NCBI GenBank assembly: GCA_016286535.1
Contig: JAEESZ010000005.1
Location: 156,585-220,584 of the forward strand
Direction: 5' to 3'
Length of the DNA stretch: 64,000 nt
From: Treponema sp.
GTDB lineage: Bacteria > Spirochaetota > Spirochaetia > Treponematales > Treponemataceae
Shown here: in pieces, positions 341 through 44,203 of the stretch
Numbering within the stretch: position 1 is the first letter of the stretch
How the letters are laid out: every line of letters begins with the position of its first letter
Translations under genes and position numbers: made by a program
Notes under the pieces: generated by a model
What the model saw: the letters and a program-made list of their open reading frames with translations, nothing else
What the model was told of the DNA's origin: nothing
Databases searched by the model: none

Positions 341-374
341 CGATTTTACCTCCGGTGCAGGAAAATTTCTCTTT

Positions 375-451: not shown

Positions 452-595
452 GCGCATAAATATCTCTTTGTATCTCTCTGCGCGTTAAACGTTTCACAAT
501 AATTATACCCCCTTTCTTTTTTCTTTGTTGGATTTTTATCTACAGGAATTGTAATATTTTTGAAAGCCCTGGGGAGATGTTGATAGTCACGCAGG

Positions 596-690
596 CTGAT
601 TTTGCCCGGGCGGTAGGCCCGGGGGGAGTTGGGAGTGTGGAGTGGTGAGTAAGGCAGGATTCGGGCGGTACGCCCGGGGGGAGTGTGGAT
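596..690. repeat. Two GC-rich hairpin-plus-G-tract repeat units in an AT-rich intergenic region
   Basis: The first unit is cccgggc-ggtag-gcccggg (605-623) followed by gggagttgggagtgtgga. The second is cgggcg-gta-cgcccg (662-676) followed by gggggagtgtgga. A related ccctggggagatgt lies at 567-581. Confidence 0.6.
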
Positions 691-701
691 TAAGGAAATC
701 T

Positions 702-735
702 ATTGTAAACTAAAATATTATAAAAGGTTTACAAT
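702..735. promoter_or_regulatory. BirA (biotin repressor) operator upstream of bioY
   Basis: Perfect 9-bp inverted repeat ATTGTAAAC (702-710), a 16-nt AT-rich spacer, then GTTTACAAT (727-735). It lies 28 nt upstream of the bioY ATG. It matches the known TGTAAAC-N14-16-GTTTACA BirA site consensus. Confidence 0.8.
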
Positions 736-762
736 ATAAATAAAAATTGTTATATTCGTGGC

Positions 763-2676: not shown

Positions 2677-2732
2677 GAAGCTTTATATAAAAATGAATAG
2701 TAAATTTTACAATCCTTTGTTAAAATATTTGT

Positions 2733-4211
2733 ATGTCAAATATCTCGAAGAATCAGAAAAAGATTTTTAACATACGTTTTATAAAAATCTTGTTTGCTAT
2801 TGTTTTGTTTGGAGCCCTTGTTGCGGCTGCCTGTCTTGTTAATTACGATTTTGTTTTAAAAATAAGCCTTATAATTTTATCTGCCGCAGCCTTTGTTTTG
2901 TGTATGTTTGAAATCTTCGCAATCATAGAACAGATTATTTATTATGATTCCCTTACAGAAATTCCAAACCGCAATTATGTAGTAAAACAGCTTCAGAAAA
3001 AGCATAGTCAGAATAAGCTTTACCAGTATTCAGTTTTTTTTATAAATCTTAAAGACTGCCGCTTTTACAATCAGATTTATGGTGCAAGTAAAACCGATGA
3101 GATTCTTATAAGTTATGCTCAGATTCTTTTTGAATATGCAGAAAGCAGTCACGGTATTTGTGCCCGAATTGGTGGAGACAACTTTGTTGTTGTAACTCCA
3201 AATTATCAGTCAAAAAAACTTCTGGATTTTATTCAGGGTATTTCCATTGAAATTGAAGTTGAAGGCCAGAAGATAAAAAGAGAACTTCCTTCCAGAGTTG
3301 GAATTACAAACCTTGCAAATTATACCTCTCCTCATAATGTTATTCTTCATTCAACTCTTGCCCTCATTGCTGCAAGACAGAAGGGGGTTGATTATGAATT
3401 CTTTTCTACAGATATGCTGGATAATTACACAAAGGAACGTAATCTTGTAGAAGAAATAAAGCAGGCCCTTAAAAATGATGAATTCATTCCATACTATCAG
3501 CCGCTGGTTAATTCTAAAACACATGTAATGTCCGGGGCAGAAGCTCTGGCCCGCTGGGTAAAGGGGGACACTTTAATTGAGCCGGAAGATTTTATTCCAA
3601 TCATGGAAAGAAACGGACTTATAGAAGAACTGGATCTTAGAATTTTTGCCCGCGTTTGTCAGGATATTTGTGACTGGCAGGATGGTGGACTTTTACCGGT
3701 ATGTGTTTCGACAAACTTTTCTAAGAGGCATTTGACTAATCCGGATTTTGTAAAAAGACTGAAGGATATAAAAAATCATTATGAAGTTCCGGACAAGTTT
3801 CTTGAAATTGAAATTACAGAAGAATCAAATGTAAAAGATCTGGCTATAGCAAGAAAACTTGCAGCCGAGCTAAAAGAAAGCGATATGAAGCTTGCCATAG
3901 ATGGTTTTGATACAGGCTTTGCTTCTCTTTCAATGCTGAATCAGTTCGAAATAGACGAAGTAAAAATAAACAAATCCTTCCTGGATCATTGTTTTGAATA
4001 TAACGATAAGGGAAAGCAGTTTCTTATTGATACAATCAATATCGTAAAAAATCAGGGTGTAAAGATTGTGTTTGAAGGAGTAGAAACTAAAGAACAGTAT
4101 GAATTCCTTGCAAAACATAACTGCGATTTTATTCAGGGCTTCTTCTTTGCACCTCCATTGACCAGCGAAGATTTTGAAACTAAACTGATGAATCCTAAAT
4201 TCAGAACCTAG
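2733..4211 (+). CDS. Membrane-anchored GGDEF(degenerate)-EAL protein, probable c-di-GMP phosphodiesterase or sensor
   Basis: Two N-terminal TM helices. The GGDEF site reads RIGGDNF. EAL-domain motifs are present: EALARW, STNFS, EIEITE, AIDGFDTGFASL, EGVET and QGFFF. Confidence 0.85.
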   Translation: MSNISKNQKKIFNIRFIKILFAIVLFGALVAAACLVNYDFVLKISLIILSAAAFVLCMFEIFAIIEQIIYYDSLTEIPNRNYVVKQLQKKHSQNKLYQYSVFFINLKDCRFYNQIYGASKTDEILISYAQILFEYAESSHGICARIGGDNFVVVTPNYQSKKLLDFIQGISIEIEVEGQKIKRELPSRVGITNLANYTSPHNVILHSTLALIAARQKGVDYEFFSTDMLDNYTKERNLVEEIKQALKNDEFIPYYQPLVNSKTHVMSGAEALARWVKGDTLIEPEDFIPIMERNGLIEELDLRIFARVCQDICDWQDGGLLPVCVSTNFSKRHLTNPDFVKRLKDIKNHYEVPDKFLEIEITEESNVKDLAIARKLAAELKESDMKLAIDGFDTGFASLSMLNQFEIDEVKINKSFLDHCFEYNDKGKQFLIDTINIVKNQGVKIVFEGVETKEQYEFLAKHNCDFIQGFFFAPPLTSEDFETKLMNPKFRT

Positions 4212-4214
4212 AAA

Positions 4215-4955
4215 ATGACAGAAGAAAAAATACAGGAAGATACTCTTTTAAACGGCCATAAAATTCTGCAGAATCCTCAAAGTTTTATGTTTGGAATTGA
4301 TGCAGTTTTGCTTGCCCATTTTGCCTCTTCCTTTATACGAAAAAAAGATTGCGTAATGGATTTATGCTGCGGAAACGGAATTATTCCTCTTTTGCTTGAT
4401 ACTGCTTCAACTGCAAAAAAAATAAGTGGACTTGAAATACAGAGTGCCTCGGTGCAGCTTGCCGCAAAATCTGTAGAATTAAACGGCCTTGGCGATAAAA
4501 TTCAAATTGTAGAAGGCGACCTTAAAAATGTAAAAAAGCTTTTTGAGCAGAAATCCTTTTCGCTTATAACCTGCAATCCCCCTTACATGCCGGCAGACTC
4601 CGGTAAAATAAATCCTGCCGACTCTAAGGCAATTGCTCGTCACGAAATTTTCTGCACGCTGGAAGATGTTATTAAGGCAGCTTCTTACCTTCTGGACGAT
4701 TGTGGTTCAATATGCATGATTCACAGGCCAAACAGACTCTCAGATTTAATTTATCTTTGCAAAAAATATAAGCTGGAACCTAAAACCCTGCGCATGATTC
4801 TTCCTTTTGAAAATAAGAGTCCCACAATGGTTTTACTCGAAGCAAGAAAGAGTGCAAAAGCTGATTTAAAAGTTTTAGAAGGTCTGACGGTTTATAAAAG
4901 TAAGGGCCAGTATTCAGATGAAGTTCAGGAAATTTACAGGTCTTTTATAAAGTAA
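4215..4955 (+). CDS. SAM-dependent methyltransferase, tRNA1(Val) m6A37 (YfiC/TrmN6)-like
   Basis: SAM-binding motif VMDLCCGNG and the NPPY motif (CNPPYM). Size and N-terminal region resemble YfiC-type enzymes. Confidence 0.7.
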   Translation: MTEEKIQEDTLLNGHKILQNPQSFMFGIDAVLLAHFASSFIRKKDCVMDLCCGNGIIPLLLDTASTAKKISGLEIQSASVQLAAKSVELNGLGDKIQIVEGDLKNVKKLFEQKSFSLITCNPPYMPADSGKINPADSKAIARHEIFCTLEDVIKAASYLLDDCGSICMIHRPNRLSDLIYLCKKYKLEPKTLRMILPFENKSPTMVLLEARKSAKADLKVLEGLTVYKSKGQYSDEVQEIYRSFIK

Positions 4956-4956
4956 C

Positions 4957-5625
4957 TTATGCCGAAATGCCTTTTAAGCACAAATCAATCAGTTTGATTG
5001 CTTTGTTCAGGGCAAGATCATCGGAAGGAAGGGCAAAGAGGGAACCTGCAGAACAGTCCGGATTTTGCCTTACAGTTTCTTTTCTTTTTGTAATGTAGCA
5101 GTCCAGCTGCTGTAAAATAACCCCTGCAATAACAGAAGAGTTTTCTTTTATATCTTTGTCTGATTTTATGGAAAGCTTACCGGCTGCAGAAAAAGACGAG
5201 ATAATCTGTTTTACTTCGTCGGTAATACGGTCTGTAAATTTTAAAAAGATATTCATAGCCTGTACGTTAAAATACTTTTCTGAACAGATAAAAGTATACA
5301 TGGCAAAAAGAGGCTCGTTTTCGTAAAGGTTAAAAAGTCTTGTAATAAGTCTTTTAAAAGTTGAATTAAGGGCAGCTTTTCCCGAGGCAATATTTTCCAG
5401 TGTTTTTTCGGTTATAAAGTTGATTTTTTTTATTTCGTCATTGCAGTAAGTCAGCGTAGATTCATACATTGCATCCCTGCTGTCGAAGTGATTGTAAAGT
5501 GAAGCTTTTTTAATTTCCAGGATATCGGCAATATCTGCCAGGGAGGTTGCACCCGCGCTTTTTTCGAAAGCGCAGGTTAAAAATGACTGTATGATTTTTT
5601 CCTGTGAAATATTCTTTTTACTCAT
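4957..5625 (-). CDS. TetR/AcrR family transcriptional regulator
   Basis: The N-terminal HTH (GATSLADIADILEIKKASLYNHFDSRDAMY) is typical of TetR. The gene is divergent from an acyl-CoA synthetase gene. Confidence 0.85.
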   Translation of the reverse strand: MSKKNISQEKIIQSFLTCAFEKSAGATSLADIADILEIKKASLYNHFDSRDAMYESTLTYCNDEIKKINFITEKTLENIASGKAALNSTFKRLITRLFNLYENEPLFAMYTFICSEKYFNVQAMNIFLKFTDRITDEVKQIISSFSAAGKLSIKSDKDIKENSSVIAGVILQQLDCYITKRKETVRQNPDCSAGSLFALPSDDLALNKAIKLIDLCLKGISA

Positions 5626-5639
5626 ACAATAATGTTCGG

Positions 5640-5659
5640 AAACTAACAGTCATTAGTTT
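5640..5659. promoter_or_regulatory. Candidate TetR operator (palindrome)
   Basis: AAACTAA-cagtca-TTAGTTT, with perfect 7-bp arms, 15 nt upstream of the TetR start in the divergent intergenic region. Assigning it to this TetR is inference. Confidence 0.3.
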
Positions 5660-5876
5660 AGAACTTTAAATTTACTTACAGCCTCTGTCAGAATTCCTAC
5701 AGAATTCAGTGCCTGGTCAGAAATTACTTTATTAATTTCCTTCCGCTCTTGCCTACTTTTAAAAATCTTTATATTATGTAATCACTTAACAAAATTTAAA
5801 AAAATGTCATTCATTTATACTTGATGAAAGCATTTTTGTATTTTTGAACTTTACAATAACAGGAATGGAGATTTCT

Positions 5877-7815: not shown

Positions 7816-8709
7816 TTAGAGGACTCCTAAAAGGATTCCCAAAATTACAATAAAAGCACAAAATAATTTATAGGCGGTGTTTGATTCCTTAAAAATCAAT
7901 TTACCGCCTATAATTGTTATAAGGCAGCCGCTTTGTTTTATAAGAGTCATAATTGTAACCCTGCTGCCTTCCATTCCGTTTGCAATAAATAAAGCCTTAT
8001 CTGCAATTACAAACATAAGAGCCATAATCCAGATATATTTGTTTTTTAAAACCGAAAGATGAATCTTTTCTCTGGTTATAAGAATATATAATATATAGTA
8101 AGAAATTAAAAAAAGCATATACCAGAATTGCAGCTGTGAACTGGTAATATCTTTCATTAAGATTTTGTCTAAAAAGCCAGAAAGGGAATTGAGCATGCAG
8201 GAAGCCAGGGCTAGAATTACAAAAAAGGTTCTGGTATTATCTTTAGGCAGATTTGTTGTAAGGTAGGCTGGGGTTTCCTGAACTTTAAAAAGCCGGCATA
8301 AAAATTTGGGCTTGAACCTTAAAAGTAAAAGACCTGCACATACAAAAGCCAGTCCAAAAATCTGATTAATTCTAAGACTTTCGTGTAAAAAAACTATGCC
8401 TAAAAAGGTTGCAAATAAAACCCGCGATAAATCCAGAACCCCGTAAAGACTAACGGGTAATCTCTTTAAAGAATGAAAAGAAAAAATCCAGGCAAGAAAA
8501 ATAAAAAAAGATTTAAGGGCAATAAGGAAATAAAACTTTACTTCCATTCCGCCGGCAAATTTTGCCTGTGGGGTTACAAGTAAAAAAGAGATAAAGGTGT
8601 ATACAACAAGCACCTCCATTACGGAGCTTGTCTGCATGGCAAGTTTCTTTGTAATCTCCCTGCAGCCTTTTAAAAGGCCGTAAAGAAGAACTAAAAGCAT
8701 CCAGGCCAT
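7816..8709 (-). CDS. EamA/DMT family transporter
   Basis: A 297-aa protein with about 10 TM helices and a two-fold internal EamA-like organisation. Confidence 0.6.
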   Translation of the reverse strand: MAWMLLVLLYGLLKGCREITKKLAMQTSSVMEVLVVYTFISFLLVTPQAKFAGGMEVKFYFLIALKSFFIFLAWIFSFHSLKRLPVSLYGVLDLSRVLFATFLGIVFLHESLRINQIFGLAFVCAGLLLLRFKPKFLCRLFKVQETPAYLTTNLPKDNTRTFFVILALASCMLNSLSGFLDKILMKDITSSQLQFWYMLFLISYYILYILITREKIHLSVLKNKYIWIMALMFVIADKALFIANGMEGSRVTIMTLIKQSGCLITIIGGKLIFKESNTAYKLFCAFIVILGILLGVL

Positions 8710-9305
8710 TAGAATTCTAATTCCTTCAGGACTTGTCCCTGCAGGTTATGCAAAGAGATTTTGTGGTTTTCCAGGATTGCAAAGCCTGGTTCAGAGCCAC
8801 CTTTTGGAATTGAAGTTGAGCCCGGATTACAAACAACGTAGCCCATAGGATTTTTTTCCAGAACAGGCACGTGGGTGTGACCGTATAAAAAGACTGCCTG
8901 ATTTACAACAGGAAAGGGGATGGCATTTTTAGAGGCGCTTTCGCAGCCGGCAGGAAGTTTGTCATTTGCAAGAAGGGGAGCGTATATGTGGCCGTGGCTT
9001 CCAAAAATCTGCAGTTTGTCTTCTGTAAAATAAAAATAGTCCCGGCTGACGTCAAAATTTAAAACCATCTGGTCAACTTCGGCATCGCAATTACCCCGGC
9101 AGGCAGTTATGGCCTGGGCAAGGGGATTAAGCAGTTCTATTACTTTTTTAGGAGCATAGCCGGCTGGAAGGTCGTTCCTTGGACCATGATAAAGAACATC
9201 TCCTAATAAGAGAATCTTATCGCAATTCAGATTGTAAAAATTTTCTATAACCTTCTGGCAGGCTGAGGCCGAACCGTGAAGGTCTGAACAAATAAAGTAT
9301 TTCAT
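8709..9305 (-). CDS. Metallophosphoesterase, YfcE/MJ0936 family
   Basis: Motifs SDLHGS, LLGDVLYHGPRN, GNCD, GHGH and GHTH. The gene overlaps the sbcC stop (ATGA). Confidence 0.7.
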   Translation of the reverse strand: MKYFICSDLHGSASACQKVIENFYNLNCDKILLLGDVLYHGPRNDLPAGYAPKKVIELLNPLAQAITACRGNCDAEVDQMVLNFDVSRDYFYFTEDKLQIFGSHGHIYAPLLANDKLPAGCESASKNAIPFPVVNQAVFLYGHTHVPVLEKNPMGYVVCNPGSTSIPKGGSEPGFAILENHKISLHNLQGQVLKELEF

Positions 9306-12064
9306 TCTATTCTACTAACTCCAGAATTATCTTTATAAACTTTTATTTTTTTCTCAATACGGTTTTCTAATTCTTCTACGTGAGAAATTATGCCTATCAG
9401 TTTATTACCTTTTGAAAGTTCTTCCAATGCCCTCATAGCCTTGTTTAAGGTTTCGGAATCCAGAGTTCCAAAGCCTTCGTCTATAAACATGGAATCCAGT
9501 GTAATACCGCCCGAATGCTCCTGAACTTCGTCGGCAAGGCCAAGGGCCAGCGAAAGAGAGGCCTGAAACTGTTCGCCGCCAGAAAGACTTTGAACAGAAC
9601 GTTTTCTTCCGGTGTAGAAATCTTTTATATCAAGGTCCAGGCCCAGCTCAGAACCATCTTCCTCTATGCGCCTGCACAGCTCGTACTTACCGTCAGTCAT
9701 AGTCCGCAGCCGCAAATTAGCCCTGCGGTTAATCTGGTCCAGGCATTTCATCTGAACATAGTTTTCGAGAGAAGGCTTTCCGCTTTTTCCCCGAGAAGAG
9801 CCGGAGGCAACTTCGCTTAATGCCCATACGCTCTGGTAATATTCATCAGCTTTAGAAATTTCCGGAAGAACTTCTTTAATATTTTCTATACACTTTTTGT
9901 TAATACCAATTCGTTGAGAAAGCAGGTCGCGCTCAAAGTTCAACTTGTCTTTTTCGCGCAGAAGTTCAGACTGTTTTTCTACTTCCTTATCATAATCAAT
10001 TTCTTTGCCCTCTTTTAAGCTTTTTTCAAGAGTGTCTATTGAGCCCTTAAAAGCAGAAATATTGTTTTCGCATTCATCTTTCTGGGCTTTAGCTTTTTCT
10101 TCAGCTTCTTTTGCAAGCTTTATGCCGGAGCGGATTTTATTAATTTCTTCTTCTGCTTCTTCAGAGGTTTTAAACTCAAGCTTATTTTTTTCTTCGTTCA
10201 GGGCATTATTTTCAGCTTCAGTCTTTGCCTTCAGGGCAGAAGTTTCTGCAGAAAATCTGTTGTACTGGTCGCTGGTAGTGCTTAATAAAGCTTCATTTTC
10301 CGGAATCAGTTTTTCAAGTTCTGATCTGCGCTTTTTATTTTTCTCTTCAAGAAGGATTTCCCCGTTAATACTTTTCTGCCTTTCGGTCAGAAGAGACACT
10401 TTTTCTTCCAGGCAATTTTCTGCTTCAGAAGCATCAGGATTAAAGGCTTCAAAATGTTTTTTGCCGGCCAGGAGAATCTGTTCAGTAAGATTTTCTGTAA
10501 GACTTTTTTGACTGCTTGCTCTGGCAGTTATTTGAGTAAGATTTTTTTGCAGTTCTTCGCACAGACTTTTTGCCTTTTCCAATTCGTTCTGCGAAGGTGC
10601 ATTTTCTGATTTTTTTGCAGGAGCAGGATGATTTAAAGAGCCGCAGACAGGACAGGGACAATTATCCTTAAGGTCTTCTGCAAGAATTCCGGCCTGTTCC
10701 ATATTAAAAAGTTTGAGCTTTTGAACATAATCAGAGTTTTTACTTTCGTAATTAGACTGGGCAGATAAAAGCTCTTCCTGCACTTTTTTAAGAATTTCCT
10801 TTTCTGTTTTAAGTTTGAAAAGATTATTCTGAAGAGCCTTTAATTCTTCTTTTTGTAAATCAATTTTCTCAAGCTCACCTTTTAGGGTCAGAAGTTTTTC
10901 TCCCGCGTCCTTCAGCCCCCCTTCTTCCTTTTTAAGCTCTTCAATCGCGCCGCAAAGTTCTTCTTTTTTCTTTAAAAGTTCAAGGCATTTCTTTTCATTA
11001 GTACTTATTTCTAAAAGCGCCTTATTTATGAGGCCGGCCTTATTTTCTATTTCTTTGTAAAGAGGCAGGGAATTTTCAATAACAGCAGCCCGGCTTTCTG
11101 AAGGAGCAAGTTCCTGAACTTTGTTTTGACTCTGTAAAAGTTCTTCTTTTTTTAGAAGAAGTTTTTCTTCCTCGCATTTCAAGAGGGCTTTTGTGCTTTC
11201 AAGTTTTTCCCTGGTCTGTTTTCTTTTTTCTCCTTCGTTTATAAGAAGACCTGCCTGGGTAAGCTTTTTGTCGAGCTCTGTCAGCTGGTCAGAAATTTCT
11301 GAAGCCTTTTTAGCATCATATTGTTCAAGCTTTTCTAAGAGCAGAATTTCTTCTTCGGTAAGATACTGAGAATCTTTTATTTTTTGAATCTCTTCAAGGT
11401 TTTCGTCGCATGGAACGATTTGATTCAACAGGGTTCTGAGCTTTTCCTTTAAAAACTGAAGATTTTTTTCTGCTTCGCTTTTTCTGCTTTTAAGGGTGTT
11501 TTGAAGCATTTCATATTTTTCTGTATGAAAAAGTTCCCTGAAAATCTTTTCTTTCTGGTCTTTTTTAGAAAGAAGAAGCTCTTGAAATTTTCCCTGGGCA
11601 ATCATTGCAATGCGGCAGAACTGATCTTTTTTTAAGCCAAGAATTTTTTCTACTTCCTGACTCACTTTTATGCTGCCTTCCAGAGGCGGCGTAGAGCTTT
11701 CGCTAAGGAAGTCCAGGCGGGCATTTGCCTTTTCTGTAGTTAGACCATCCCCTTTACGCGATTTTCTTTCGTAATCAGGATTTCTTATTATGTGATATTT
11801 TTTATCTTTTACTTCAAAAAAAAGTTCAACTTCGGTAGGTGTGTTTTCGTCTGCAAAGTGAGAGCGAAGCATTTCAACATCGCGAACATCTCCGCTGGAG
11901 CTTCCGTAAAGGGCAAAGGTAATTGCATCAAAAATTGTAGTTTTTCCGCTTCCAGTATCTCCGCTAATTAAAAAAAGCCCTCGAATACCTGATTTTTCAA
12001 AATCGATTTCGGTTTTATCTTTGTAAGATTCAAAACCTGTCATTATTAATTTTAGAGGTTTCAT
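9302..12064 (-). CDS. sbcC: Exonuclease SbcC (SMC-like ATPase)
   Basis: N-terminal Walker A GDTGSGKTT, a long coiled coil, the zinc hook CPVCGS, and C-terminal LSGGE and DEGFGTLD motifs. Confidence 0.9.
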   Translation of the reverse strand: MKPLKLIMTGFESYKDKTEIDFEKSGIRGLFLISGDTGSGKTTIFDAITFALYGSSSGDVRDVEMLRSHFADENTPTEVELFFEVKDKKYHIIRNPDYERKSRKGDGLTTEKANARLDFLSESSTPPLEGSIKVSQEVEKILGLKKDQFCRIAMIAQGKFQELLLSKKDQKEKIFRELFHTEKYEMLQNTLKSRKSEAEKNLQFLKEKLRTLLNQIVPCDENLEEIQKIKDSQYLTEEEILLLEKLEQYDAKKASEISDQLTELDKKLTQAGLLINEGEKRKQTREKLESTKALLKCEEEKLLLKKEELLQSQNKVQELAPSESRAAVIENSLPLYKEIENKAGLINKALLEISTNEKKCLELLKKKEELCGAIEELKKEEGGLKDAGEKLLTLKGELEKIDLQKEELKALQNNLFKLKTEKEILKKVQEELLSAQSNYESKNSDYVQKLKLFNMEQAGILAEDLKDNCPCPVCGSLNHPAPAKKSENAPSQNELEKAKSLCEELQKNLTQITARASSQKSLTENLTEQILLAGKKHFEAFNPDASEAENCLEEKVSLLTERQKSINGEILLEEKNKKRRSELEKLIPENEALLSTTSDQYNRFSAETSALKAKTEAENNALNEEKNKLEFKTSEEAEEEINKIRSGIKLAKEAEEKAKAQKDECENNISAFKGSIDTLEKSLKEGKEIDYDKEVEKQSELLREKDKLNFERDLLSQRIGINKKCIENIKEVLPEISKADEYYQSVWALSEVASGSSRGKSGKPSLENYVQMKCLDQINRRANLRLRTMTDGKYELCRRIEEDGSELGLDLDIKDFYTGRKRSVQSLSGGEQFQASLSLALGLADEVQEHSGGITLDSMFIDEGFGTLDSETLNKAMRALEELSKGNKLIGIISHVEELENRIEKKIKVYKDNSGVSRIE

Positions 12065-15378: not shown

Positions 15379-16530
15379 ATGAAGAAAACAAAAGTAAAAT
15401 GTGTTTTTATTGTTATGGCTATTTCTATGGCTTTAAGCTGTAAGAATAATGTTAATGTTCAGGTAAAGAATGGAGATAACAGTGCGCAGGCAATTGCAGA
15501 AGACTATTTTAATATAGTTTGCATGCAAAGCAATATGGTAAATGCAAGAGCACTAACCGAAGAGAGTTATCCGGATATTCTTTACGAAACAATAATAACA
15601 GATGAAAATGATGAAATAATCAGTTTTGCAGATTTAGATGCAAAAAGTCAGAAAGAATTTTATGAAATCTGGAAGGAAGATTTTATTGGAGATTTAACAG
15701 GAAAATTACTAACAGATTCTAACCTAAAAGAAATTGTAGAAATAGAAAATGAAGCCTTTATTGAGACTGCAAGTTCATCCAGCAGAGCAGTTTTTACAGA
15801 AAGAGATATAGAAAGTTTTTTTAAGCAATATGAAAAAAATTTTAATAAACTTGTTAAAAACTCTGTGGCTGCAAGAGGAGCTTCTTCCGGAAACTCTTTG
15901 ATAAGAATTGAAGATGGAGAAATAATTCCTGAATCTTTGAAAATCTTTTCAGAAAATTATAAGAAAGGAAGATTTCTTGTAAATACAAATTCTTCAGATT
16001 CTGATATTAGTGGGTACTTAGGACACACTTCTCTGATGTGTTATGATAATGTAGAACCAAATTGGGCAAAAGATATATCTTTAAAAGCAACAATCACATC
16101 ATATCCTCTTAATACTACTAAAGGAACAACCTGGGTAGGTCAGACTGATGGAGTTCAGTATGAACCAGTAGGATACTGGTGTGGAACAAAAGGTGCACCC
16201 ACAGTTTTAATTTTAGATGTATATCGGACTGTATGGAAGTGGTTTACAAAAACTGCATATATGGCAACAGACGAGGAACATAATACAGCTGTAGATAAAG
16301 CAGATGATCATTTAGGAAAGCCTTATAATTGGGATTTTGTCAAATTGAAGAAAGATAAAGGAATGTGGGATACAGATAAGTTTTATTGTTCATCTTTAGT
16401 ATTCAGAGCCTGGTATGATACAAATAAAAAGTATTCACTAAATACAAATATTCTTTATGTAAGACCTGCCAGTCTGGTTGCTTCTAACAACAGTATAATT
16501 ATTGCAAGATATGAGAATGAGGAGGAATAA
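15379..16530 (+). CDS. Lipoprotein with C-terminal YiiX/YaeF-like permuted papain-fold hydrolase domain (module copy A1)
   Basis: Lipobox MALSC. Motif order is YLGHTS ... DGVQYEPVGYW ... HLGKPYNWDF ... KFYCSSLVFRAWY, i.e. His before Cys, with GKPY-x-x-F and YCS-hydrophobic motifs as in the YiiX (C92) family. Confidence 0.7.
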   Translation: MKKTKVKCVFIVMAISMALSCKNNVNVQVKNGDNSAQAIAEDYFNIVCMQSNMVNARALTEESYPDILYETIITDENDEIISFADLDAKSQKEFYEIWKEDFIGDLTGKLLTDSNLKEIVEIENEAFIETASSSSRAVFTERDIESFFKQYEKNFNKLVKNSVAARGASSGNSLIRIEDGEIIPESLKIFSENYKKGRFLVNTNSSDSDISGYLGHTSLMCYDNVEPNWAKDISLKATITSYPLNTTKGTTWVGQTDGVQYEPVGYWCGTKGAPTVLILDVYRTVWKWFTKTAYMATDEEHNTAVDKADDHLGKPYNWDFVKLKKDKGMWDTDKFYCSSLVFRAWYDTNKKYSLNTNILYVRPASLVASNNSIIIARYENEEE

Positions 16531-17116
16531 ATGAAATTAGTACCTCTCTTTCTATCTCTTTTTGTATTTATTTCCTGTCAGAGCTGGTATAAGACCAGTG
16601 TAGATATGAGTAAAATAACAAACAAAACTACATACCAGCCTTTTACAGAATTAAATGACCCAATAGTTGTAAATATGCCAGTTTATGAGACACTTTACTT
16701 ATGGGGTAATGAAAACAATAAATTTAAGCAGAACAGAATAGGTGATATGTTTGTAATTTATGACTGGGAAAGTGATGAAATTTACGACTGGGTCTTTTAC
16801 GGGAATGAAAGTTTTTATTGTCTACCTAACATAATTCAAGTGGGAAGTAACCCCAAGTACTATATAAATTCTCTGGATTCTTCTGGAACAATAGCAAAGC
16901 TTGAAGCAGATAAGACAAGTGTAACTTTATATAAAACAGACAAGAGAGGTACTTTTTTTAATTATTCAACACCCGGAAAATACTGTCTTCGAGATTATGC
17001 AAGGCATTCAGATGAATTGAATAAGGTATTGTTTTGTCTGAATATATTTGACTGTGAAAAAGGCCAGTATACTGATGCAGATATACAGGTTCCTACAGAT
17101 GCCTATGGGTATATAA
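16264..17116 (+). repeat. Conserved block of the tandem duplication (copy 1); matches 18729-19581
   Basis: Alignment by eye at a constant offset of 2465 nt shows roughly 93-95% identity. The block spans the A1 C-terminus, the gene junction and B1 residues 1-195. The flanking segments are much more diverged. Confidence 0.75.
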
Positions 17117-17730
17117 GCCAACCTGTAGCAGATAATGAAGGAAACTTTTATTTTGCAAATGTATTAAATGGTTATAGTCATATTTATAGAGTAGATTGTA
17201 GTACAGAGACTGTGGAAATAAAAGATATAAATATAAATTGTTTTAAAAGTAATACAGAAGTATATGAATATACTTTTGATGTGCGTTATGTAATTGATGA
17301 GGAAAATCTTTTTGTATATAAGGGGCATTTAGGTTTGCCTCCATATTATGGGAATAAATTGTTTTTAATGTCTTTTACAGATAATGTTAGAAAAGAATTC
17401 ACTTTAGATTTGGATGGTTATAAATGGTTGTTTAGAATTGTCTGTTCAAATAGTAATTATTATGCAATTGTCGAAGACCGCTCTGACGAACAACATTTGG
17501 TTTATGTGTACAAACTTGATATAAATAATATGACAGGTGAGATAATAAACGAAAATAATCCAATAACAATAAATTTTAATCAAGAATTGTTTGTTCGAGG
17601 AACAAGAATATATTTTTTAAACTATTTAAATCGTCATAAGATTCAATATTCATACTTTGATGTAGAAACAAAAGAAGTTAGCGAGATAAAAGTCTTGAAC
17701 CAGAAAGAAGTAGTTGGCTTTGATTTTTAG
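16531..17730 (+). CDS. Beta-rich lipoprotein, partner of the hydrolase lipoprotein (module copy B1)
   Basis: Lipobox FISC. The ATG directly abuts the A1 stop (TAAATG), and a GAGGAGG Shine-Dalgarno lies inside the A1 3' end. Aromatic-rich strand-like repeats are present. No known motif. Confidence 0.6.
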   Translation: MKLVPLFLSLFVFISCQSWYKTSVDMSKITNKTTYQPFTELNDPIVVNMPVYETLYLWGNENNKFKQNRIGDMFVIYDWESDEIYDWVFYGNESFYCLPNIIQVGSNPKYYINSLDSSGTIAKLEADKTSVTLYKTDKRGTFFNYSTPGKYCLRDYARHSDELNKVLFCLNIFDCEKGQYTDADIQVPTDAYGYISQPVADNEGNFYFANVLNGYSHIYRVDCSTETVEIKDININCFKSNTEVYEYTFDVRYVIDEENLFVYKGHLGLPPYYGNKLFLMSFTDNVRKEFTLDLDGYKWLFRIVCSNSNYYAIVEDRSDEQHLVYVYKLDINNMTGEIINENNPITINFNQELFVRGTRIYFLNYLNRHKIQYSYFDVETKEVSEIKVLNQKEVVGFDF

Positions 17731-17840
17731 AGTACAAAATGATCATATTAGGGGTTTTCTCTGTTGATTATTTTGAATTGTATAAATAGACTTCAAAAAA
17801 AGATAATAAAATAAAAATTTAAAAATAAAAGGAGTTGTTT

Positions 17841-18995
17841 ATGAAAAAAACAAAATTAAAATGTATTTTTATTGTTACGGCTATTTTTATGGCTTTAAGC
17901 TGTAAGAATAATGTTACTGTTCAGCTAAAGGCAGGAGATAACAGTGCACAGACAGTTGCAGAAGACTATTTTAATATAGTTTGCATGCAGAGCAATATGG
18001 TAAATGCAAGAGCACTAACCGAAGAGTGTTATCCGGATATTCTTTATGAAACAATAATAACAGATGAAAATGATGAAATAATCAGTTTTGCAGATTTAGA
18101 TGCAGAAAGTCAGAAAAAGCTTTATGAAGTCTGGAAGGAAGATTTTATTAGAGAACTTACAGAAAAGATAGAATCAGATTCAGATTTAAAGGAGATGGTT
18201 GAATTAGAAAATGAAGCTTTTATGGAAACTGCAAGTAATTTGAATAGAACTGCCTTTGCAGAAAAAGACTTGGAAAGCTTTTTTAAGCAGTATGAAAAGA
18301 ACTTAAGTAAACTAATAGATAAAGCGGATACAGTGAGAAGAGCCTCATCTAAAAAGTCTTTAATAAGAATAGAAGATGGAAAACTAATTCAGAAATCTGT
18401 AACAATATTTTCAGATAATTATAAGAAGGGAAGAATTTTAGTTAATAAAAAAGGCAGTAGTTCAAATTCCGGCAGCTATCTCGGGCATGCATCCATGATG
18501 TGTTATGATGAAAAGAAAGATAAATGGACGGAAGATATTTCTGCAAAAGCAACAATAACTTCATATCCCCATAACACAGAAAGAGGGACTACCTGGGAAG
18601 GACAGACAGACGGAGTTCAATATGAACCAATAGGATACTGGTGTGGAACAAAAGGCGCTCCTTCAGTAATAATATTAGATGTAGGTTGTGAGGTATGGAA
18701 TAAAGATTTAGTAAAGACCTGGTATACTGCAACAGACGAGGAACATAATACAGCTGTAGATAAAGCAGATGATCATTTAGGAAAGCCTTATAATTGGGAT
18801 TTTGTCAAACTGAAGAAAGATAAAGGAATGTGGGATACAGCTAAGTTTTATTGTTCATCTTTAGTATTCAGAGCCTGGTATGATACAAACAAAAACTATT
18901 CATTACATACAAATTTTCTTTATGTAAGACCAGCCAGTCTGGTTGCTTCTAACAACAGTATAATTATTGCAAGATATGAGAATGAGGAGAAATAA
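17841..18995 (+). CDS. Lipoprotein with YiiX/YaeF-like permuted papain-fold hydrolase domain (module copy A2)
   Basis: About 75-80% identical to A1 by eye, with identical stretches at the N-terminus and across the last ~88 aa. Motifs YLGHAS and KFYCSSLVFRAWY. The ATG at 17841 is preferred over the TTG at 17835. Confidence 0.7.
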   Translation: MKKTKLKCIFIVTAIFMALSCKNNVTVQLKAGDNSAQTVAEDYFNIVCMQSNMVNARALTEECYPDILYETIITDENDEIISFADLDAESQKKLYEVWKEDFIRELTEKIESDSDLKEMVELENEAFMETASNLNRTAFAEKDLESFFKQYEKNLSKLIDKADTVRRASSKKSLIRIEDGKLIQKSVTIFSDNYKKGRILVNKKGSSSNSGSYLGHASMMCYDEKKDKWTEDISAKATITSYPHNTERGTTWEGQTDGVQYEPIGYWCGTKGAPSVIILDVGCEVWNKDLVKTWYTATDEEHNTAVDKADDHLGKPYNWDFVKLKKDKGMWDTAKFYCSSLVFRAWYDTNKNYSLHTNFLYVRPASLVASNNSIIIARYENEEK

Positions 18996-19581
18996 ATGAA
19001 ATTTCTACCTTTCTTACTCCCATTAACTTTATTTGTATCCTGTCAGAGCTGGTATAAGACCAGTGTAGATATGAGTAAAATAACAAACAAAACTACATAC
19101 CAGCCTTTTACAGAATTAAATGACCCAATAGTTGTAAATATGCCGGTTTATGAGACACTATATTTATGGGGTAATGAAAACAATAAATTTAAACAGAACA
19201 GAATAGGCGACATGTTTGTAATATATGACTGGGAAAGTGATGAAATTTACGACTGGGTCTTTTACGGGAAGGAAAGTTTTTATTGTCTACCCCACATAAT
19301 TCAGGTAGGAAGTAATCCTAAGTATTATATAAATTCTCTGGATTCTTCTGGAACAATAGCAAAGCTTGAAGCAGATAAAACAAGTGTGACCTTATATCAG
19401 ACGGACAGGAGAGGAACTTTCTTTAATTATTCAACGCCTGGTAAATATTGTCTTCGGGATTATGCAAGGCATTCAGATGAACTGAATAAGGTCTTATTTT
19501 GTCTGAATATATTTGACTGTGAAAAAGGAGAATATACGGCTGCTGATATTCAGATTCCTACAGATGCTTATGGGTATATTT
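18729..19581 (+). repeat. Conserved block of the tandem duplication (copy 2); matches 16264-17116
   Basis: See 16264-17116. Most differences are third-codon-position changes, for example ccc aag tac versus cct aag tat. Confidence 0.75.
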
Positions 19582-20195
19582 TGACTATAAATTCAAGTAA
19601 AAGTGGTGATTTTTATTTTGGGAATATCCTGGATGGTAAAGGACAAGTTTGTAAAGTGAATTGTGAAGCTGGAAGTGTAGAAATAAAAGAACCAGGGATA
19701 AACTGTTATAAAGAGAATTCAACAAGTTATAAATATAATATCGATGTAATATATATAAAAGATGATGATTTCTTATTCTTAAATAAAAGCCCCTTAGGTT
19801 CTGCTCCATATATAGGAAACAAACTATATCTGTATTCTTTCGCAGAAAATACAAAAAAAGAGTTCTCTTTAAGTACGAGTGGATATGAATTATTTAGTAG
19901 AATTGTACAAGTAAATGACAATTATTATTTAATTACCACAGATCATTCTTCAGAGGAGTGTTCAATTAGTATATATAAACTAAATCTTGAAAACATGTCA
20001 GGGGAAAAGATTAGCCAGGATAATTCTATTTTTATTTCACTAACACAGGAACCTCTAGTTCGAGGTAATAGAATTTATATTTTCAATTACTGGAACTCTC
20101 ATAAAATCCAATACCTATATTTTGATGTAGAAACAAAGGAAGTAAGCCCTATTAAAGTTCTGAACCAGAAAGAAGTAGTAGGCTTTGATTTTTAA
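18996..20195 (+). CDS. Beta-rich lipoprotein partner (module copy B2)
   Basis: Lipobox FVSC, with a TAAATG junction to A2. Residues 16-195 are about 97% identical to B1, residues ~196-370 only about 35-40% identical, and the last ~30 aa nearly identical again. Confidence 0.6.
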   Translation: MKFLPFLLPLTLFVSCQSWYKTSVDMSKITNKTTYQPFTELNDPIVVNMPVYETLYLWGNENNKFKQNRIGDMFVIYDWESDEIYDWVFYGKESFYCLPHIIQVGSNPKYYINSLDSSGTIAKLEADKTSVTLYQTDRRGTFFNYSTPGKYCLRDYARHSDELNKVLFCLNIFDCEKGEYTAADIQIPTDAYGYILTINSSKSGDFYFGNILDGKGQVCKVNCEAGSVEIKEPGINCYKENSTSYKYNIDVIYIKDDDFLFLNKSPLGSAPYIGNKLYLYSFAENTKKEFSLSTSGYELFSRIVQVNDNYYLITTDHSSEECSISIYKLNLENMSGEKISQDNSIFISLTQEPLVRGNRIYIFNYWNSHKIQYLYFDVETKEVSPIKVLNQKEVVGFDF

Positions 20196-20213
20196 TAATA
20201 AAAGGAGTTGTTT

Positions 20214-41621: not shown

Positions 41622-41660
41622 GTTACTATTTATAGTAACACCAAAAATGAGTGATGTCAA
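41622..41660 (-). promoter_or_regulatory. paaK promoter with overlapping 18-bp palindromic operator
   Basis: On the minus strand: TTGACA (41660-41655), a 17-nt spacer, TACTAT (41637-41632). The operator GTTACT-ATAAAT-AGTAAC (41639-41622) overlaps the -10 element. An AGGAG Shine-Dalgarno and the ATG at 41607 follow. Confidence 0.55.
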
Positions 41661-41672
41661 ATATAAATTCAA

Positions 41673-42842
41673 TTATTTGGGATTAATTGTCATGGTAGAG
41701 TAGTCCATAACATAAGTGTAGGGCGCTTTTTCCCAGGTATCTAAGTCAAAATAGGTATAAGAGTCATTTCCGTACATAAAATAAATACGACTGCCACGTA
41801 ACCATTCATTTTCTGTTGCCCAGATATCAATACGGTCACTAACACGTTCTACTTCGAGAGTATCAGTATTTATCTGATATACATAAACACAATAGTAATT
41901 TGTTATGTTCGATTTACCAAAACACTCAATATATAATTTATCTTTGTATAAAAAACCGCTTGGCAAATAACCATCATCTATATCTTCGGGAAAACTGTAA
42001 CTCTTTTCTGAAATCAGATTTCCTGTTTCGGAACTATATTTTCTTATAATGCTTTCATAATCATTTACAACTGAAGACTGAAATAAGATTCCGTTCTTTA
42101 CAGCAATGACTTTATCAGTACCATGGCTTTTAAAATTAATTACATCGTCTATCGTGTAATTATTGCAGTCGATTTTTGCCAGATATCGTAAATTTTCGAA
42201 TTGTCTGTCTTTTTTCTCGTAAGAAATCCAAAGATAACCATTATCATCTTCAATTGGAAATGTTATATCTGATTCTGTTTCAAATCTAATTTTATCTTTC
42301 AGAAGAATTTCTTTTTCTGCATCAAAGAAGCTGCAGGTTGTTTGTGGATAATTTTCATAGTAATCAAACATAATACCTTTTTCTCCTTTAAAAAAGGATG
42401 GTTCTATGTAACTATGTACATCACTTGTGTCGTAAATTGTAACTTTGTTTGAATCAGGACTTATACAGCCTACAACTCCACCATAAGATGATGAATAATA
42501 TTTCTTTGGAGAGGTGCCTAATTCTATAGCTCTTTTCATTACAGAGCCAGGATTGCTTGGGTAATAAACCCAGTCAAAAATAGTATCGGTCTCCCAGTCT
42601 ATAACCACAAAAACGTTACCCCTGTTATAAGATACTCCGTCCAGGCAGGGAAGTCCTAAAAAGGTCTTTTCCCACATAACATCTGCAATTATAACAAGAG
42701 GGTCATTTAAATGTTCAAAGTTCTTTATAGTTGTTTTTCCGGTAACCTTTCCGTCATCCCAGTAAGGTATGCAGGAAGAAAATAAAAAGAATATGGAAAT
42801 AAGGAAAAGTCTGCAGATAAATTTATAAAAATTATTTTTCAT
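41673..42842 (-). CDS. Beta-rich lipoprotein partner (module copy B3, diverged)
   Basis: Lipobox FSSC. It is homologous to B1/B2: LNDPLVII...VFVVIDWETDTIFDWVYY...SPKKYY versus LNDPIVVN...MFVIYDWESDEIYDWVFY...NPKYY, and RGSRIYFMY...YFDLDTWE versus RGTRIYFLN...YFDVETKE. The ATG at 42842 is preferred. Confidence 0.6.
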   Translation of the reverse strand: MKNNFYKFICRLFLISIFFLFSSCIPYWDDGKVTGKTTIKNFEHLNDPLVIIADVMWEKTFLGLPCLDGVSYNRGNVFVVIDWETDTIFDWVYYPSNPGSVMKRAIELGTSPKKYYSSSYGGVVGCISPDSNKVTIYDTSDVHSYIEPSFFKGEKGIMFDYYENYPQTTCSFFDAEKEILLKDKIRFETESDITFPIEDDNGYLWISYEKKDRQFENLRYLAKIDCNNYTIDDVINFKSHGTDKVIAVKNGILFQSSVVNDYESIIRKYSSETGNLISEKSYSFPEDIDDGYLPSGFLYKDKLYIECFGKSNITNYYCVYVYQINTDTLEVERVSDRIDIWATENEWLRGSRIYFMYGNDSYTYFDLDTWEKAPYTYVMDYSTMTINPK

Positions 42843-42852
42843 ATACACTTCC

Positions 42853-44055
42853 TTATTTATTTACGTATGTATTTATAACTTTAATCTTTGAAGACTTTGC
42901 AAGTTCTTTTGGAGTGACCCACCAGCCTTCGTTTTCAAGGATATAATCTTTAGAAACTCCTTTCCAGGCTAAATAAACTAATTGAGAACAGTATATTCCT
43001 TTTTCTGTGCTATCGTGACCATGGAATAAAGAATAGTTTTTTCCATAATACTTTTTTGCACATTCTACAGCCTTCAGACATTCTTCAAGACTTGCCCTGT
43101 CATCTACACTGTTTTGCTCATTTAATTCTCCATCATCATAGACAAGATTCTGTTTTTTTACATAGTAGACAGAGACAGTTTTTGCAGAACTTCCGGCATT
43201 TCCTGCCCAGTAACCTACGGGCTCATCCTGTACGCCATCTATTTTTCCTTCCCACTGTCCACCTTTTCCTAATGGGCTAGATGTAATTGAAAGTTTTAAT
43301 AAAGCATTCTTTTGAAAATCGTCATTCCATTTCCCAGTTTTTATCAGAGCAGCATGACCTTTACCTCCCCTTCCATTAGAACTATTATCAGGAGTAATCA
43401 GTATAAGTCCGCTGCCCTGTGGATCTTCTTCCTCCTCATATTTTTGAAAACAATTCCTTAAGGCATTCATTGATTCTAGTACTCCAGAATCTTTTTTAAT
43501 CGGATCTTTTTTGTTTGCTTTTCTTGATGTACTTTCTGGCTCATTAAGACTAGAATATTTATCAATATTTTCAAAATATTTAGACATAAAGTTCTCATAA
43601 TTTTTCAGTGCAGAACGTGAAGCTGTACTGTAAGTTTCTTCAAAAGCTGCAAGATCTACAAGAAGAAGTTCCCTAAATACAGGGTCTTCTTCAAGTTTGT
43701 TTTCAATCTCTTTGCTTCTGAACTTTTTCCAGGCCTCTGTGAATCTGGCTTTTTCATTGTTGTCTAAATCGAGAAAGGATTTTTCTGTATTATTTTCATC
43801 AAAGAAAGTTATTTCATTTAAAAATTCTGGATAAGTGTAAGCTGCTCTTGCAGAATTTTCTATTGCATCTAATCGCCACATATTTTCGATTTCTTTTTCT
43901 GCAAGTTCATGGCTGGAAAGATTTTCCATAACCTGAAGATATGTAAAATCGGTTCTTTGCGGGGTCTTTACTGTAACTGAGTTTTTGCATGATAATAACA
44001 GTAAAACGTTTAATAAAGATGTTAAAATAAAAAGATTTTTAATTTGGTGTTTCAT
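42853..44055 (-). CDS. Lipoprotein with YiiX/YaeF-like permuted papain-fold hydrolase domain (module copy A3, diverged)
   Basis: Lipobox LLLSC. Motifs GKGHAALI ... IDGVQDEPVGYW ... YYGKNYSLF ... GIYCSQLVYLAW. The N-domain aligns with A1/A2 (NSARAAYTYPEFLNEITFFDENN versus VNARALTEESYPDILYETIITDEND). Confidence 0.65.
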   Translation of the reverse strand: MKHQIKNLFILTSLLNVLLLLSCKNSVTVKTPQRTDFTYLQVMENLSSHELAEKEIENMWRLDAIENSARAAYTYPEFLNEITFFDENNTEKSFLDLDNNEKARFTEAWKKFRSKEIENKLEEDPVFRELLLVDLAAFEETYSTASRSALKNYENFMSKYFENIDKYSSLNEPESTSRKANKKDPIKKDSGVLESMNALRNCFQKYEEEEDPQGSGLILITPDNSSNGRGGKGHAALIKTGKWNDDFQKNALLKLSITSSPLGKGGQWEGKIDGVQDEPVGYWAGNAGSSAKTVSVYYVKKQNLVYDDGELNEQNSVDDRASLEECLKAVECAKKYYGKNYSLFHGHDSTEKGIYCSQLVYLAWKGVSKDYILENEGWWVTPKELAKSSKIKVINTYVNK

Positions 44056-44099
44056 AAATTTTCTCCTATATTTTTAATTATAATATTTTGTTATAAATA

Positions 44100-44128
44100 A
44101 TCTTATTATTTTTTTTCTTTCCTGTCAA
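44100..44128 (-). promoter_or_regulatory. Candidate promoter of the A3-B3 operon
   Basis: On the minus strand: TTGACA (44128-44123), a 17-nt spacer, TAAGAT (44105-44100), about 45 nt upstream of the A3 ATG. Confidence 0.4.
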
Positions 44129-44146: not shown

Positions 44147-44203
44147 TTGACAAAGTTTTTATCCTCTGTTACTGTAAATAGTAACGTTACTACAAATAGA
44201 AAC
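44147..44203 (+). promoter_or_regulatory. trpP-ecf promoter with two tandem 18-bp palindromic operators
   Basis: TTGACA (44147-44152), a 17-nt spacer, TACTGT (44170-44175). Operator 1 is GTTACT-GTAAAT-AGTAAC (44168-44185) and operator 2 is GTTACT-ACAAAT-AGAAAC (44186-44203). The architecture matches the paaK promoter. Confidence 0.55.

Follow-up and report, generated by a model that had tools for sequence, protein, structure and literature searches.

How did two lipoprotein genes come to stand between a pair of divergent promoters that carry the same operator, and what might these genes do? The question is raised by A3 and B3, two adjacent genes in a 64,000-nucleotide stretch of a Treponema sp. 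genome (GenBank assembly GCA_016286535.1, contig JAEESZ010000005.1, positions 156,585 to 220,584; this whole stretch is called the window, and coordinates refer to it unless another contig is named). A3 (42853 to 44055, minus strand; 400 amino acids) encodes a lipoprotein composed of a helical N-domain and a C-domain that appears to be a divergent permuted NlpC/P60 (YiiX-like) domain, and B3 (41673 to 42842, minus strand) encodes a lipoprotein modeled as a β-propeller and matching no Pfam family. One neighbor is paaK, which is of the aryl-acetate/phenylacetate-CoA ligase type (AMP-binding plus AMP-binding_C_2); the others are trpP with three energy-coupling factor (ECF) transporter genes, iorB-iorA (indolepyruvate:ferredoxin oxidoreductase), and an aminotransferase gene. 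Taken together, these flanks are an aromatic amino-acid and tryptophan utilization block, and orthologues of paaK at 72 to 89% identity are found almost only in metagenome-assembled genomes (MAGs) of gut and rumen Treponema and in T. bryantii. A3 and B3 form a self-contained cassette that was inserted between trpP and paaK, and they belong to a two-gene family that is found in several chromosomal contexts.

A reading made earlier from the sequence alone had described A3 and B3 as full-length, diverged homologues of the tandem modules A1-B1-A2-B2 (15379 to 20195, plus strand), which lie within a low-GC, strain-variable island at about 13.3 to 20.8 kb. This description is borne out: A3 and A1 share 28% identity over their full length (E = 3e-34) and B3 and B1 share 27% (E = 5e-21), compared with 77% for A1/A2 and 72% for B1/B2. 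The pair is on the opposite strand, and its nearest paralogue, B2, ends at 20195, 21.5 kb away, in agreement with the distance of about 21 kb given before. All four of the motifs quoted for the family are present in A3 (GKGHAALI at residue 231, DGVQDEPVGYW at 273, GKNYSLF at 338, and IYCSQLVYLAW at 354), and both the A-then-B order and the lipoboxes are kept. The lipobox cysteines are Cys23 in A3 (LLLSC; codon 43987 to 43989) and Cys24 in B3 (LFSSC; codon 42771 to 42773), within MKHQIKNLFILTSLLNVLLLLSC followed by K in A3 and MKNNFYKFICRLFLISIFFLFSSC followed by I in B3; in a pattern check, the cysteine was at least 90% conserved in both families. B3 has 389 residues if translated from the ATG at 42842, or 391 from the GTG at 42848; the ATG is the likelier start, with GGAAG 5 nt upstream of it and a gap of 10 nt from the A3 stop codon.

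The history of the site was traced in paaK loci from 80 related Treponema species, onto each of which the window genes were mapped. In 11 of the 80 species the order is iorA-iorB (forward), ecfT-ecfA-ecfA-trpP (reverse), and paaK (forward), so that trpP and paaK are directly divergent; they are 200 to 440 bp apart, with back-to-back –35 boxes separated by 38 to 50 nt and the same operators on both sides. No A or B homologue was detected at any of the 80 loci by tblastn (E < 0.1) and family hidden Markov models (HMMs). Only in four conspecific contigs, L087, L088, L090, and L091, which derive from three or more other samples, is the trpP-paaK site occupied by the pair; their PaaK and TrpP proteins are 100% and 98% identical to those of the window. 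Because the site is empty in 11 species and the pair there is confined to conspecifics, parsimony favors one insertion in the lineage of this species, which would have taken place after its split from the nearest sampled relatives. The earlier suggestion that trpP and paaK were once directly divergent, and that an A-B cassette came to lie between them, is thus supported by synteny, and also by the co-divergence of A and B and by GC content, as described below. Other species carry different genes in the same gap: pheA plus aroG (prephenate dehydratase and DAHP synthase), two other lipoproteins, an IS30-like transposase, or a 553-amino-acid signaling protein which, judged by eye from its sequence, is of the diguanylate cyclase/GGDEF-like type (GGDEF/EAL). 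Such unrelated cargo was located at 8283 to 9944 in L002, 4159 to 5992 in L056, 7562 to 9596 in L060, 8857 to 9804 in L061, and 7878 to 9912 in L062, and this variety implies that the gap is a recurrent landing site, or insertion hot spot. The position of trpP-ecf relative to iorAB-paaK also varies among the 80 loci (L001 to L080): many have iorA-iorB-paaK contiguous, some have the ECF operon between iorB and paaK, as in the window, and the rest have iorAB inverted or at a distance. Across the clade, the genes of this aromatic-acid block have repeatedly been rearranged.

The limits of the cassette were defined by homology across contexts. Related copies are found between genes for a pseudouridine synthase and dCMP deaminase/fhs (L089, L082, and L092) and between genes for a GH2 glycosidase and a 900-amino-acid protein (L081, which equals L093). 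The DNA shared by these copies starts at a –35 box, TTGACA, and runs through a 17-nt spacer, TAnnAT, a leader (ATATAACAAAAnATTATAnTTAAAAA), a ribosome-binding site, and the ATG; it ends no more than 12 nt past the B stop codon. Mapped onto the window, the whole cassette (promoter, leader, A3, and B3) spans about 41661 to 44128 on the minus strand, or 2.47 kb. That the same limits recur in three unrelated contexts confirms the claim of a self-contained unit with its own promoter. The sigma-70-type promoter, TTGACA-17-TAAGAT (44100 to 44128, minus strand), carries no operator and is 95 to 97% identical in the conspecific contig L087, and the 5' leader with its ribosome-binding site (ATATAACAAAAnATTATAnTTAAAAA...GGAG; 44056 to 44099, minus strand) is kept in all three contexts. 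The promoter call itself stood only in part: the site is present, with 10 of 12 matches, but in DNA so rich in A and T the bare consensus is not above chance (13 sites found, 16.4 expected). Its credibility is raised because TTGACA-17-TAnnAT lies at the same upstream distance in the three contexts, the copies in L089, L092, and L081 having the same –35 box, the 17-nt spacing, and TAnnAT. The –35 box of the cassette (44128 to 44123) stands back to back with that of trpP (44147 to 44152), with 18 nt between them, and the B3 stop codon is 12 nt from the –35 box of paaK. As these distances show, the site of insertion is exactly the short spacer, of roughly 30 to 50 bp, that separates the –35 boxes of the divergent promoters, and both sets of operators remained intact.

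The operator common to the two flanking promoters had been pointed out before, and it withstands scrutiny. The paaK promoter (41622 to 41660, minus strand) consists of TTGACA at 41660 to 41655, a 17-nt spacer, and TACTAT, with the operator GTTACTATTTATAGTAAC at 41622 to 41639; the trpP promoter (44147 to 44203, plus strand) consists of TTGACA at 44147 to 44152 and TACTGT at 44170 to 44175, with tandem operators at 44168 to 44185 and 44186 to 44203. The motif GTTACT-N6-AGTAAC is thus found once at the paaK –10 element and twice in tandem at the –10 element and leader of trpP. It has three matches in the 64 kb, where 0.12 would be expected, and none of 100 shuffled sequences reached three; in the relatives, perfect copies are almost always immediately 5' of paaK or next to trpP. 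Across the clade (L001 to L091), this 18-bp palindrome overlaps the –10 element of paaK and is present one or two times at paaK and twice at trpP, and it is also present in species in which paaK directly follows iorAB. GTTACT-N6-AGTAAC looks like the operator of a repressor that is probably tryptophan responsive and would couple tryptophan uptake to aryl-acetate formation. A conserved operator that ties trpP-ecf (tryptophan uptake) to paaK (aryl-acetate formation) clade-wide is a by-product of this analysis. The back-to-back arrangement of the A3 and trpP –35 boxes, as seen for paaK at the empty sites, prompted the idea that A3 is driven by the original paaK promoter or by a duplicate of it. 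This idea was rejected: by hand comparison, the two spacers share 3 of 17 bases, no intact operator lies 3' of the A3 promoter, and the motif travels with the cassette in unrelated contexts.

The junction next to paaK also bears on expression. No terminator was found in or next to the cassette, and none after B3. Because the cassette promoter carries no operator, no terminator follows, and the cassette ends 12 nt before the paaK –35 box, read-through into paaK is possible; transcription from the cassette promoter could enter paaK unless a repressor sitting on the paaK operator blocks it. Insertion may in this way uncouple the catabolic gene paaK from its repressor.

No integrase, transposase, or flanking direct repeat had been noticed in the sequence-only reading, and none was found here. 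There is no transposase or integrase open reading frame (ORF) between 40.3 and 47.4 kb, and no tRNA gene or Rfam family in or beside the cassette; repeat searches disclosed neither a target-site duplication nor terminal inverted repeats at its ends. The cassette accordingly lacks the features of an autonomous mobile element (transposase or integrase, inverted repeats, target-site duplication, and attachment site). The only flanking repeat is the pre-existing operator palindrome, which accounts for both a 24-nt "direct repeat" (D4) and an inverted repeat (I2) and is present at empty sites too. A 6-bp target duplication, suggested by TTGACA at both cassette ends, was likewise rejected, as the two promoter –35 boxes explain both occurrences. 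The data point instead to insertion by recombination that involved family copies and the short ends they share (the promoter and signal-peptide region, and the 3' end of B), not by a transposase. A compositional check proposed earlier gave a divided answer. The GC content of the cassette is 32.6% compared with 37.3% for the window, and none of 187 other 2.47-kb stretches is as low (the cassette and the A1-B2 island excluded); GC at third codon positions deviates as well, and the trinucleotide distance is in the top 10%. However, synonymous codon usage does not single out A3 or B3, which rank an ordinary 27th and 42nd of 50 genes; the most codon-deviant genes of the window are those from A1 to B2 and their neighbors. 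Such a composition fits exchange among treponemes more than import from a distant donor.

The alternative to insertion is an ancestral A-B pair between trpP and paaK that repeated losses removed from the relatives. Native-like codon usage and the presence of A-B at this site in all four conspecific contigs would agree with this history. However, it would require at least 11 independent clean deletions, each restoring a compact operator-bearing gap, and it leaves aside the copies with the same limits in unrelated contexts, the different cargo at the same spot in other species, and a GC content that is the lowest outside the other island. We regard an ancestral pair as very improbable.

Beyond this site, A and B define a family of their own. 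Single-sequence searches of 5.8 billion proteins returned 13 A-like and 7 B-like clusters; a B profile search of 1.84 billion representatives returned 147 clusters (105 at E < 1e-10), nearly all of 380 to 430 amino acids, and the few members bearing a name are "hypothetical protein" from Treponema or Spirochaetaceae. A profile built from the A alignment retrieved 24 proteins, all of them family members and none a link to an annotated family, and a locus search with a nine-sequence B alignment retrieved three metagenome loci. NCBIfam gave nothing useful, and no Pfam family covers B. The family would be restricted to Treponema and occupy several chromosomal slots per genome, with copies reshuffled by homologous recombination or gene conversion and no dedicated transposase. 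In one MAG (GCA_016648615.1), the window locus is accompanied by the L081 orphan B (B4) and by P0011, another A-B pair, so that at least four pairs and at least one orphan B are present in one genome.

The two genes are strictly linked. Family HMMs applied to all fetched loci showed every A to be directly followed by B in at least 11 loci with downstream DNA (the three window pairs, L083, L084 to L086, L087/L088, L089, L094, L095, and L096, and L098, which is A-B-B); the coding regions abut, overlap by 4 nt, or sit 10 nt apart. A and B had been expected to have congruent phylogenies if they move together, and the identity matrices of eight pairs are correlated with r = 0.95 (Mantel p ~0.001), while the neighbor-joining trees share two main clades; A and B therefore evolve and move together. 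This co-divergence holds for the whole genes and not for every segment. No orphan A was found in any fetched locus by the HMM scan, and B stands alone at three loci (L081/L093, L092, and L094). These orphan B genes (4022 to 5182 in L081, 7052 to 8215 in L092, and 3159 to 4403 in L094) come from in-frame deletion of A. In L081 and L092, an A-type signal peptide (MNHKIK.FFILTLSLNVLL...) is fused in frame at the lipobox to mature B; in L094, a complete B1-type gene has the first 17 codons of an A1-type gene fused to its 5' end. The three loci are independent in-frame A deletions that left B under the cassette promoter, and they go back to two or more separate events, one in a B3-type and one in a B1-type lineage. 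L098 has an A-B-B array (8001 to 11890) directly 5' of the rpsL-rpsG-tuf operon, in which the B N termini are identical and the remainders have diverged.

Within B3, divergence is concentrated in the middle of the protein. The region from about residue 141 to 315 (41898 to 42420, minus strand) is 47 to 73% identical in nucleotides to the conspecific allele of L087 and has indels, whereas its flanks are 95 to 100% identical; the identity of A3 to L087 falls to 78 to 87% in patches. The synonymous divergence (dS) between the window and this conspecific is 0.09 for paaK, 0.18 for trpP, 0.31 for A, and 0.61 for the whole of B. By these values the alleles of the cassette predate the DNA around them, which indicates that they were imported by recombination. 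The B middle has a nonsynonymous divergence (dN) of 0.47 and a dN/dS of 0.5, compared with 0.03 for the N-terminal part, which points to relaxed or diversifying selection on the middle blades. The segment of residues 45 to 135 (42438 to 42710, minus strand) is 98 to 100% identical in nucleotides to the orphan B of L092, at another locus, versus 88 to 93% to the positional allele in L087, with dS values of 0.035 and 0.54, respectively. In a sliding comparison, the variable middle is also nearest to L092 (70 to 82%, versus 47 to 60% for L087), while the signal-peptide end and the last ~75 residues are nearest to L087. The nearest relative thus switches along the gene, from L087 at the ends to L092 over residues 16 to 135 and 166 to 311. 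These switches indicate that B3 is a recombinant mosaic, which would have arisen by gene conversion between loci. Conserved ends and a diverged middle are likewise seen in A1/A2 and B1/B2.

The second A-B locus of the window is also variable. L094 is another strain's counterpart of the window from 12 to 24 kb; by eye, from ORF translations, the flanking sbcD, the hydrogenase-like chemoreceptor (methyl-accepting chemotaxis protein), and the carboxylesterase are near-identical. The island between them (1603 to 8813 in L094, 13313 to 20759 in the window) differs: in L094 it contains an A::B fusion, four 180-amino-acid outer-membrane-like proteins, and an A-B pair 40% and 27% identical to that of the window. 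As the island content differs in L094, both A-B loci of the window are strain variable. The A1-B1-A2-B2 island is the part of the window with the lowest GC content and the most deviant codon usage. Its modules are bracketed by genes for signal-peptide proteins of about 180 residues ending in ...GYKF, which resemble small outer-membrane β-barrels, have no Pfam match, and are amplified in L094 (13313 to 13849 and 20208 to 20759 in the window; 1603 to 2139, 4508 to 5053, 5068 to 5619, and 8262 to 8813 in L094). The ribosome-binding site and start region of the gene at 20208 (AAAAGGAGTTGTTTATG) are identical to those of A2. About 100 bp 5' of A2 together with its signal-peptide region (17731 to 17834) are nearly identical to the L094 A gene (~5640 to 5744), and the mature proteins are 40% identical, which suggests recombination breakpoints at the conserved 5' end of the module.

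The A protein is a candidate enzyme. The model of A3 has a mean predicted local distance difference test (pLDDT) score of 83 and comprises a helical N-domain (residues ~34 to 170) and an α/β C-domain. His234 (codon 43354 to 43356), at the start of the strand 234 to 238, precedes Cys356 (codon 42988 to 42990), the first residue of the helix 356 to 365; both are invariant in 15 members, and a His that comes before a helix-start Cys is the permuted catalytic order of the YaeF/YiiX family. With a profile of the A family, the helix of the catalytic Cys aligns to E. coli YiiX (2IF6; E = 4.6e-4), and three members, P0006, P0008, and P0009, pass the 27-bit gathering threshold of PF05708 with 30 to 31 bits. 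Judged by these sequence features, A is a putative enzyme of the permuted NlpC/P60 class, YiiX-like but divergent. LRAT and HRASLS proteins have acyltransferase and phospholipase activities. Permuted NlpC/P60 enzymes act on fatty-acyl substrates, and YiiX was crystallized with a fatty acid (PMC3142127; PMC7387801). A would then be an exported lipoprotein whose C-terminal Cys-His enzyme attacks fatty-acyl linkages in lipids or lipoproteins, as a hydrolase or a transferase. In L095, an A-B pair (9 to 5876) lies directly 3' of a lipid block encoding a double ketoacyl synthase, a ketoreductase, a FabA/ApeI-like dehydratase, a flavodoxin-like protein, a PlsC-type acyltransferase, and a patatin; this context is a weak hint toward lipids.

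The B3 model (pLDDT 76) is all-β, with 26 strands. Foldseek returned 568 Protein Data Bank (PDB) matches at E ≤ 1e-3, the top ones being seven- to eight-bladed propellers (probability 1.0, template modeling [TM] scores 0.4 to 0.54), and the B profile weakly matches the YVTN propeller 1L0Q. On these models, B is a β-propeller lipoprotein.

What the inserted cassette may do is best approached from the gene arrangement. An enzyme gene is followed by a partner gene, and the partner also occurs as an orphan (three loci) or in duplicate (one A-B-B array), with no orphan A, an arrangement expected of effector-immunity pairs. B, produced in step with A, would bind or neutralize A, or A-like enzymes of neighboring cells. 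In our reading, such an enzyme/protector logic best explains the strict order, the tight coupling, the A-B-B array, and the three independent losses of A in which B stayed expressed; if B is a protector, its retention, duplication, and diversification where A is gone would be accounted for. That both parts hold together, namely, a self-contained accessory cassette inserted between trpP and paaK and an enzyme/protector pair encoded by it, has in our judgment about an even chance. A number of observations weigh against it. A3 itself scores 17.1 bits on PF05708 (A1, 24.0; A2, 21.8), below the threshold of 27; the PF05708 alignment is limited to the Cys-helix part (profile positions 70 to 130 of 166); and Foldseek searches of the PDB and of the viral BFVD, made with the model of full-length A3, retrieved no match below E = 0.25 and no NlpC/P60 structure, so that a papain-like fold match to 2IF6 or 3KW0 was not obtained. 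Because A3 is below the threshold and lacks a Foldseek match, we call A a divergent relative of the PF05708 family and not a proven member. No type VI secretion system (T6SS), type V secretion/contact-dependent inhibition, type VII secretion, or Rhs genes were found in the window or in any fetched context, and A itself has a lipobox, an unusual feature in a delivered toxin, and no targeting signal other than that of a lipoprotein. Between strains, A is far less variable (89% identity) than B, half of which is hypervariable; tight covariation would be expected if B bound A through its variable face, and this is not what is seen. In addition, dN/dS stays below 1 throughout, no insertion mechanism was recognized for the cassette, and L092, although from the same sample's assembly, may belong to another genome than the window; a chimera of the 270-nt tract is unlikely.

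A bolder form of the enzyme/protector proposal, in which the A-B modules are an undescribed interbacterial-conflict or self-protection system of gut spirochetes that needs no secretion system, is put forward tentatively, and we think it less probable than its negation. A would there be a lipoprotein-anchored phospholipase or acyl-hydrolase, perhaps delivered by contact or in vesicles, and B an immunity factor whose specificity might be renewed by gene conversion among expressed copies, with the orphan B genes serving as an immunity reservoir. The main rival is a surface-display module, in which A and B would both be outer-surface lipoproteins, B as a ligand-capturing propeller and A as the enzyme that processes the captured lipid or other substrate, and variation would result from host antibody or phage pressure. 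Segmental gene conversion is a route of antigen variation in spirochetes (vlsE, tprK), and B3 received segments from a paralogue; within the species, half of B is hypervariable but strong purifying selection acts on its two terminal parts, both islands are strain variable, and the orphan B keeps a promoter and a signal peptide, so that B works without A. The B3 model also resembles the surface propeller lipoproteins BtuG1 and BtuG2 among other propellers, but these matches are generic (TM scores as above) and the BtuG likeness is at the level of the fold only. The display model does not account for the fixed order of A then B, for their coupled translation, or for the fact that B, but never A, occurs alone; moreover, the donor copies are expressed genes and not silent cassettes. 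We judge surface display to be rather unlikely. A weaker rival holds that A is an LnsA-like acyltransferase or deacylase that alters lipoprotein acylation, possibly that of B, with B as substrate or specificity factor. LnsA, a permuted NlpC/P60 protein distantly like YiiX, N-acylates S. aureus lipoproteins with a second protein (PMC7387801), and A and B are both predicted to be co-expressed lipoproteins; however, a housekeeping system would not have several copies, a low GC content, hypervariability, and differences between strains. LnsA works with a membrane CAAX-type protein and not with a propeller, and orphan B genes lack a cognate A. Lipoprotein remodeling seems improbable to us.

Whichever function applies, a Treponema-specific and previously undescribed two-gene family has been defined, with about 150 clusters at 50% identity (from the B search only) that carry no annotation. 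The family behaves like a conflict or surface-variation system: the gene order is strict, B can stand alone or in duplicate, half of the propeller is hypervariable, and loci exchange segments by gene conversion. The locus also provides a base-level example of a promoter-bearing gene pair landing between divergent regulated promoters without a recognizable mobility gene. Gut and rumen treponemes are abundant and poorly studied, and a lipid-targeting enzyme/partner system, if true, would offer a new way into the biology of their envelope and the competition between strains.

Among known systems, the closest to A are YaeF and YiiX (PF05708, Peptidase_C92; 2IF6, 3KW0). A resembles them in the invariant His followed by Cys, and it aligns with YiiX over the Cys helix, (Y/F)CS(Q/E)LV, and the preceding "A..A..YLGK.Y" helix; E. 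coli YaeF is a lipoprotein. Unlike these proteins, A has an extra helical N-domain of about 140 residues, an invariant DGVQ.EP.GYW.G motif, and a constant propeller partner, and only about one-third of the C92 profile aligns with it. T6SS lipase effectors pair with periplasmic lipoprotein immunity proteins (Tle/Tli). Tox-Act1 and TseH are permuted NlpC/P60 antibacterial phospholipase effectors, and the immunity protein of Tox-Act1 is membrane associated (PMC12994826). A-B resembles these pairs in having an enzyme gene followed by a membrane-anchored partner, in the orphan and duplicated partners, and in its strain-level diversity; unlike Tox-Act1 and TseH, it has no delivery system, its enzyme has a lipobox, its partner is a propeller of about 390 residues, and toxicity and immunity are putative. 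LnsA/LnsB of S. aureus also combines a distant permuted NlpC/P60 enzyme of the cell envelope with a second protein (PMC7387801), but lnsA and lnsB are not adjacent, LnsB is a polytopic membrane protein, and the system is single copy and conserved. Bacteroides BtuG (8PTD, 8PTF) and BamB share with B the lipoprotein nature and the seven- to eight-bladed propeller fold; they have no sequence similarity to B (TM scores 0.38 to 0.43), and no TonB-dependent transporter or BAM genes are adjacent to A-B. Borrelia vlsE and T. pallidum tprK likewise have a variable center between conserved ends and segments copied from paralogues, and B3 shows this segmental conversion between conserved ends. Unlike those systems, with their silent, promoterless donors, the A-B donors are complete and promoter bearing (L092 and L081 keep the promoter, ribosome-binding site, and signal peptide), and there is no single expression site or silent-cassette array. 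In known terms, A-B is a permuted NlpC/P60 enzyme, as far as its motifs indicate, with a cognate partner, carried on an accessory cassette of an undescribed, Treponema-specific family.

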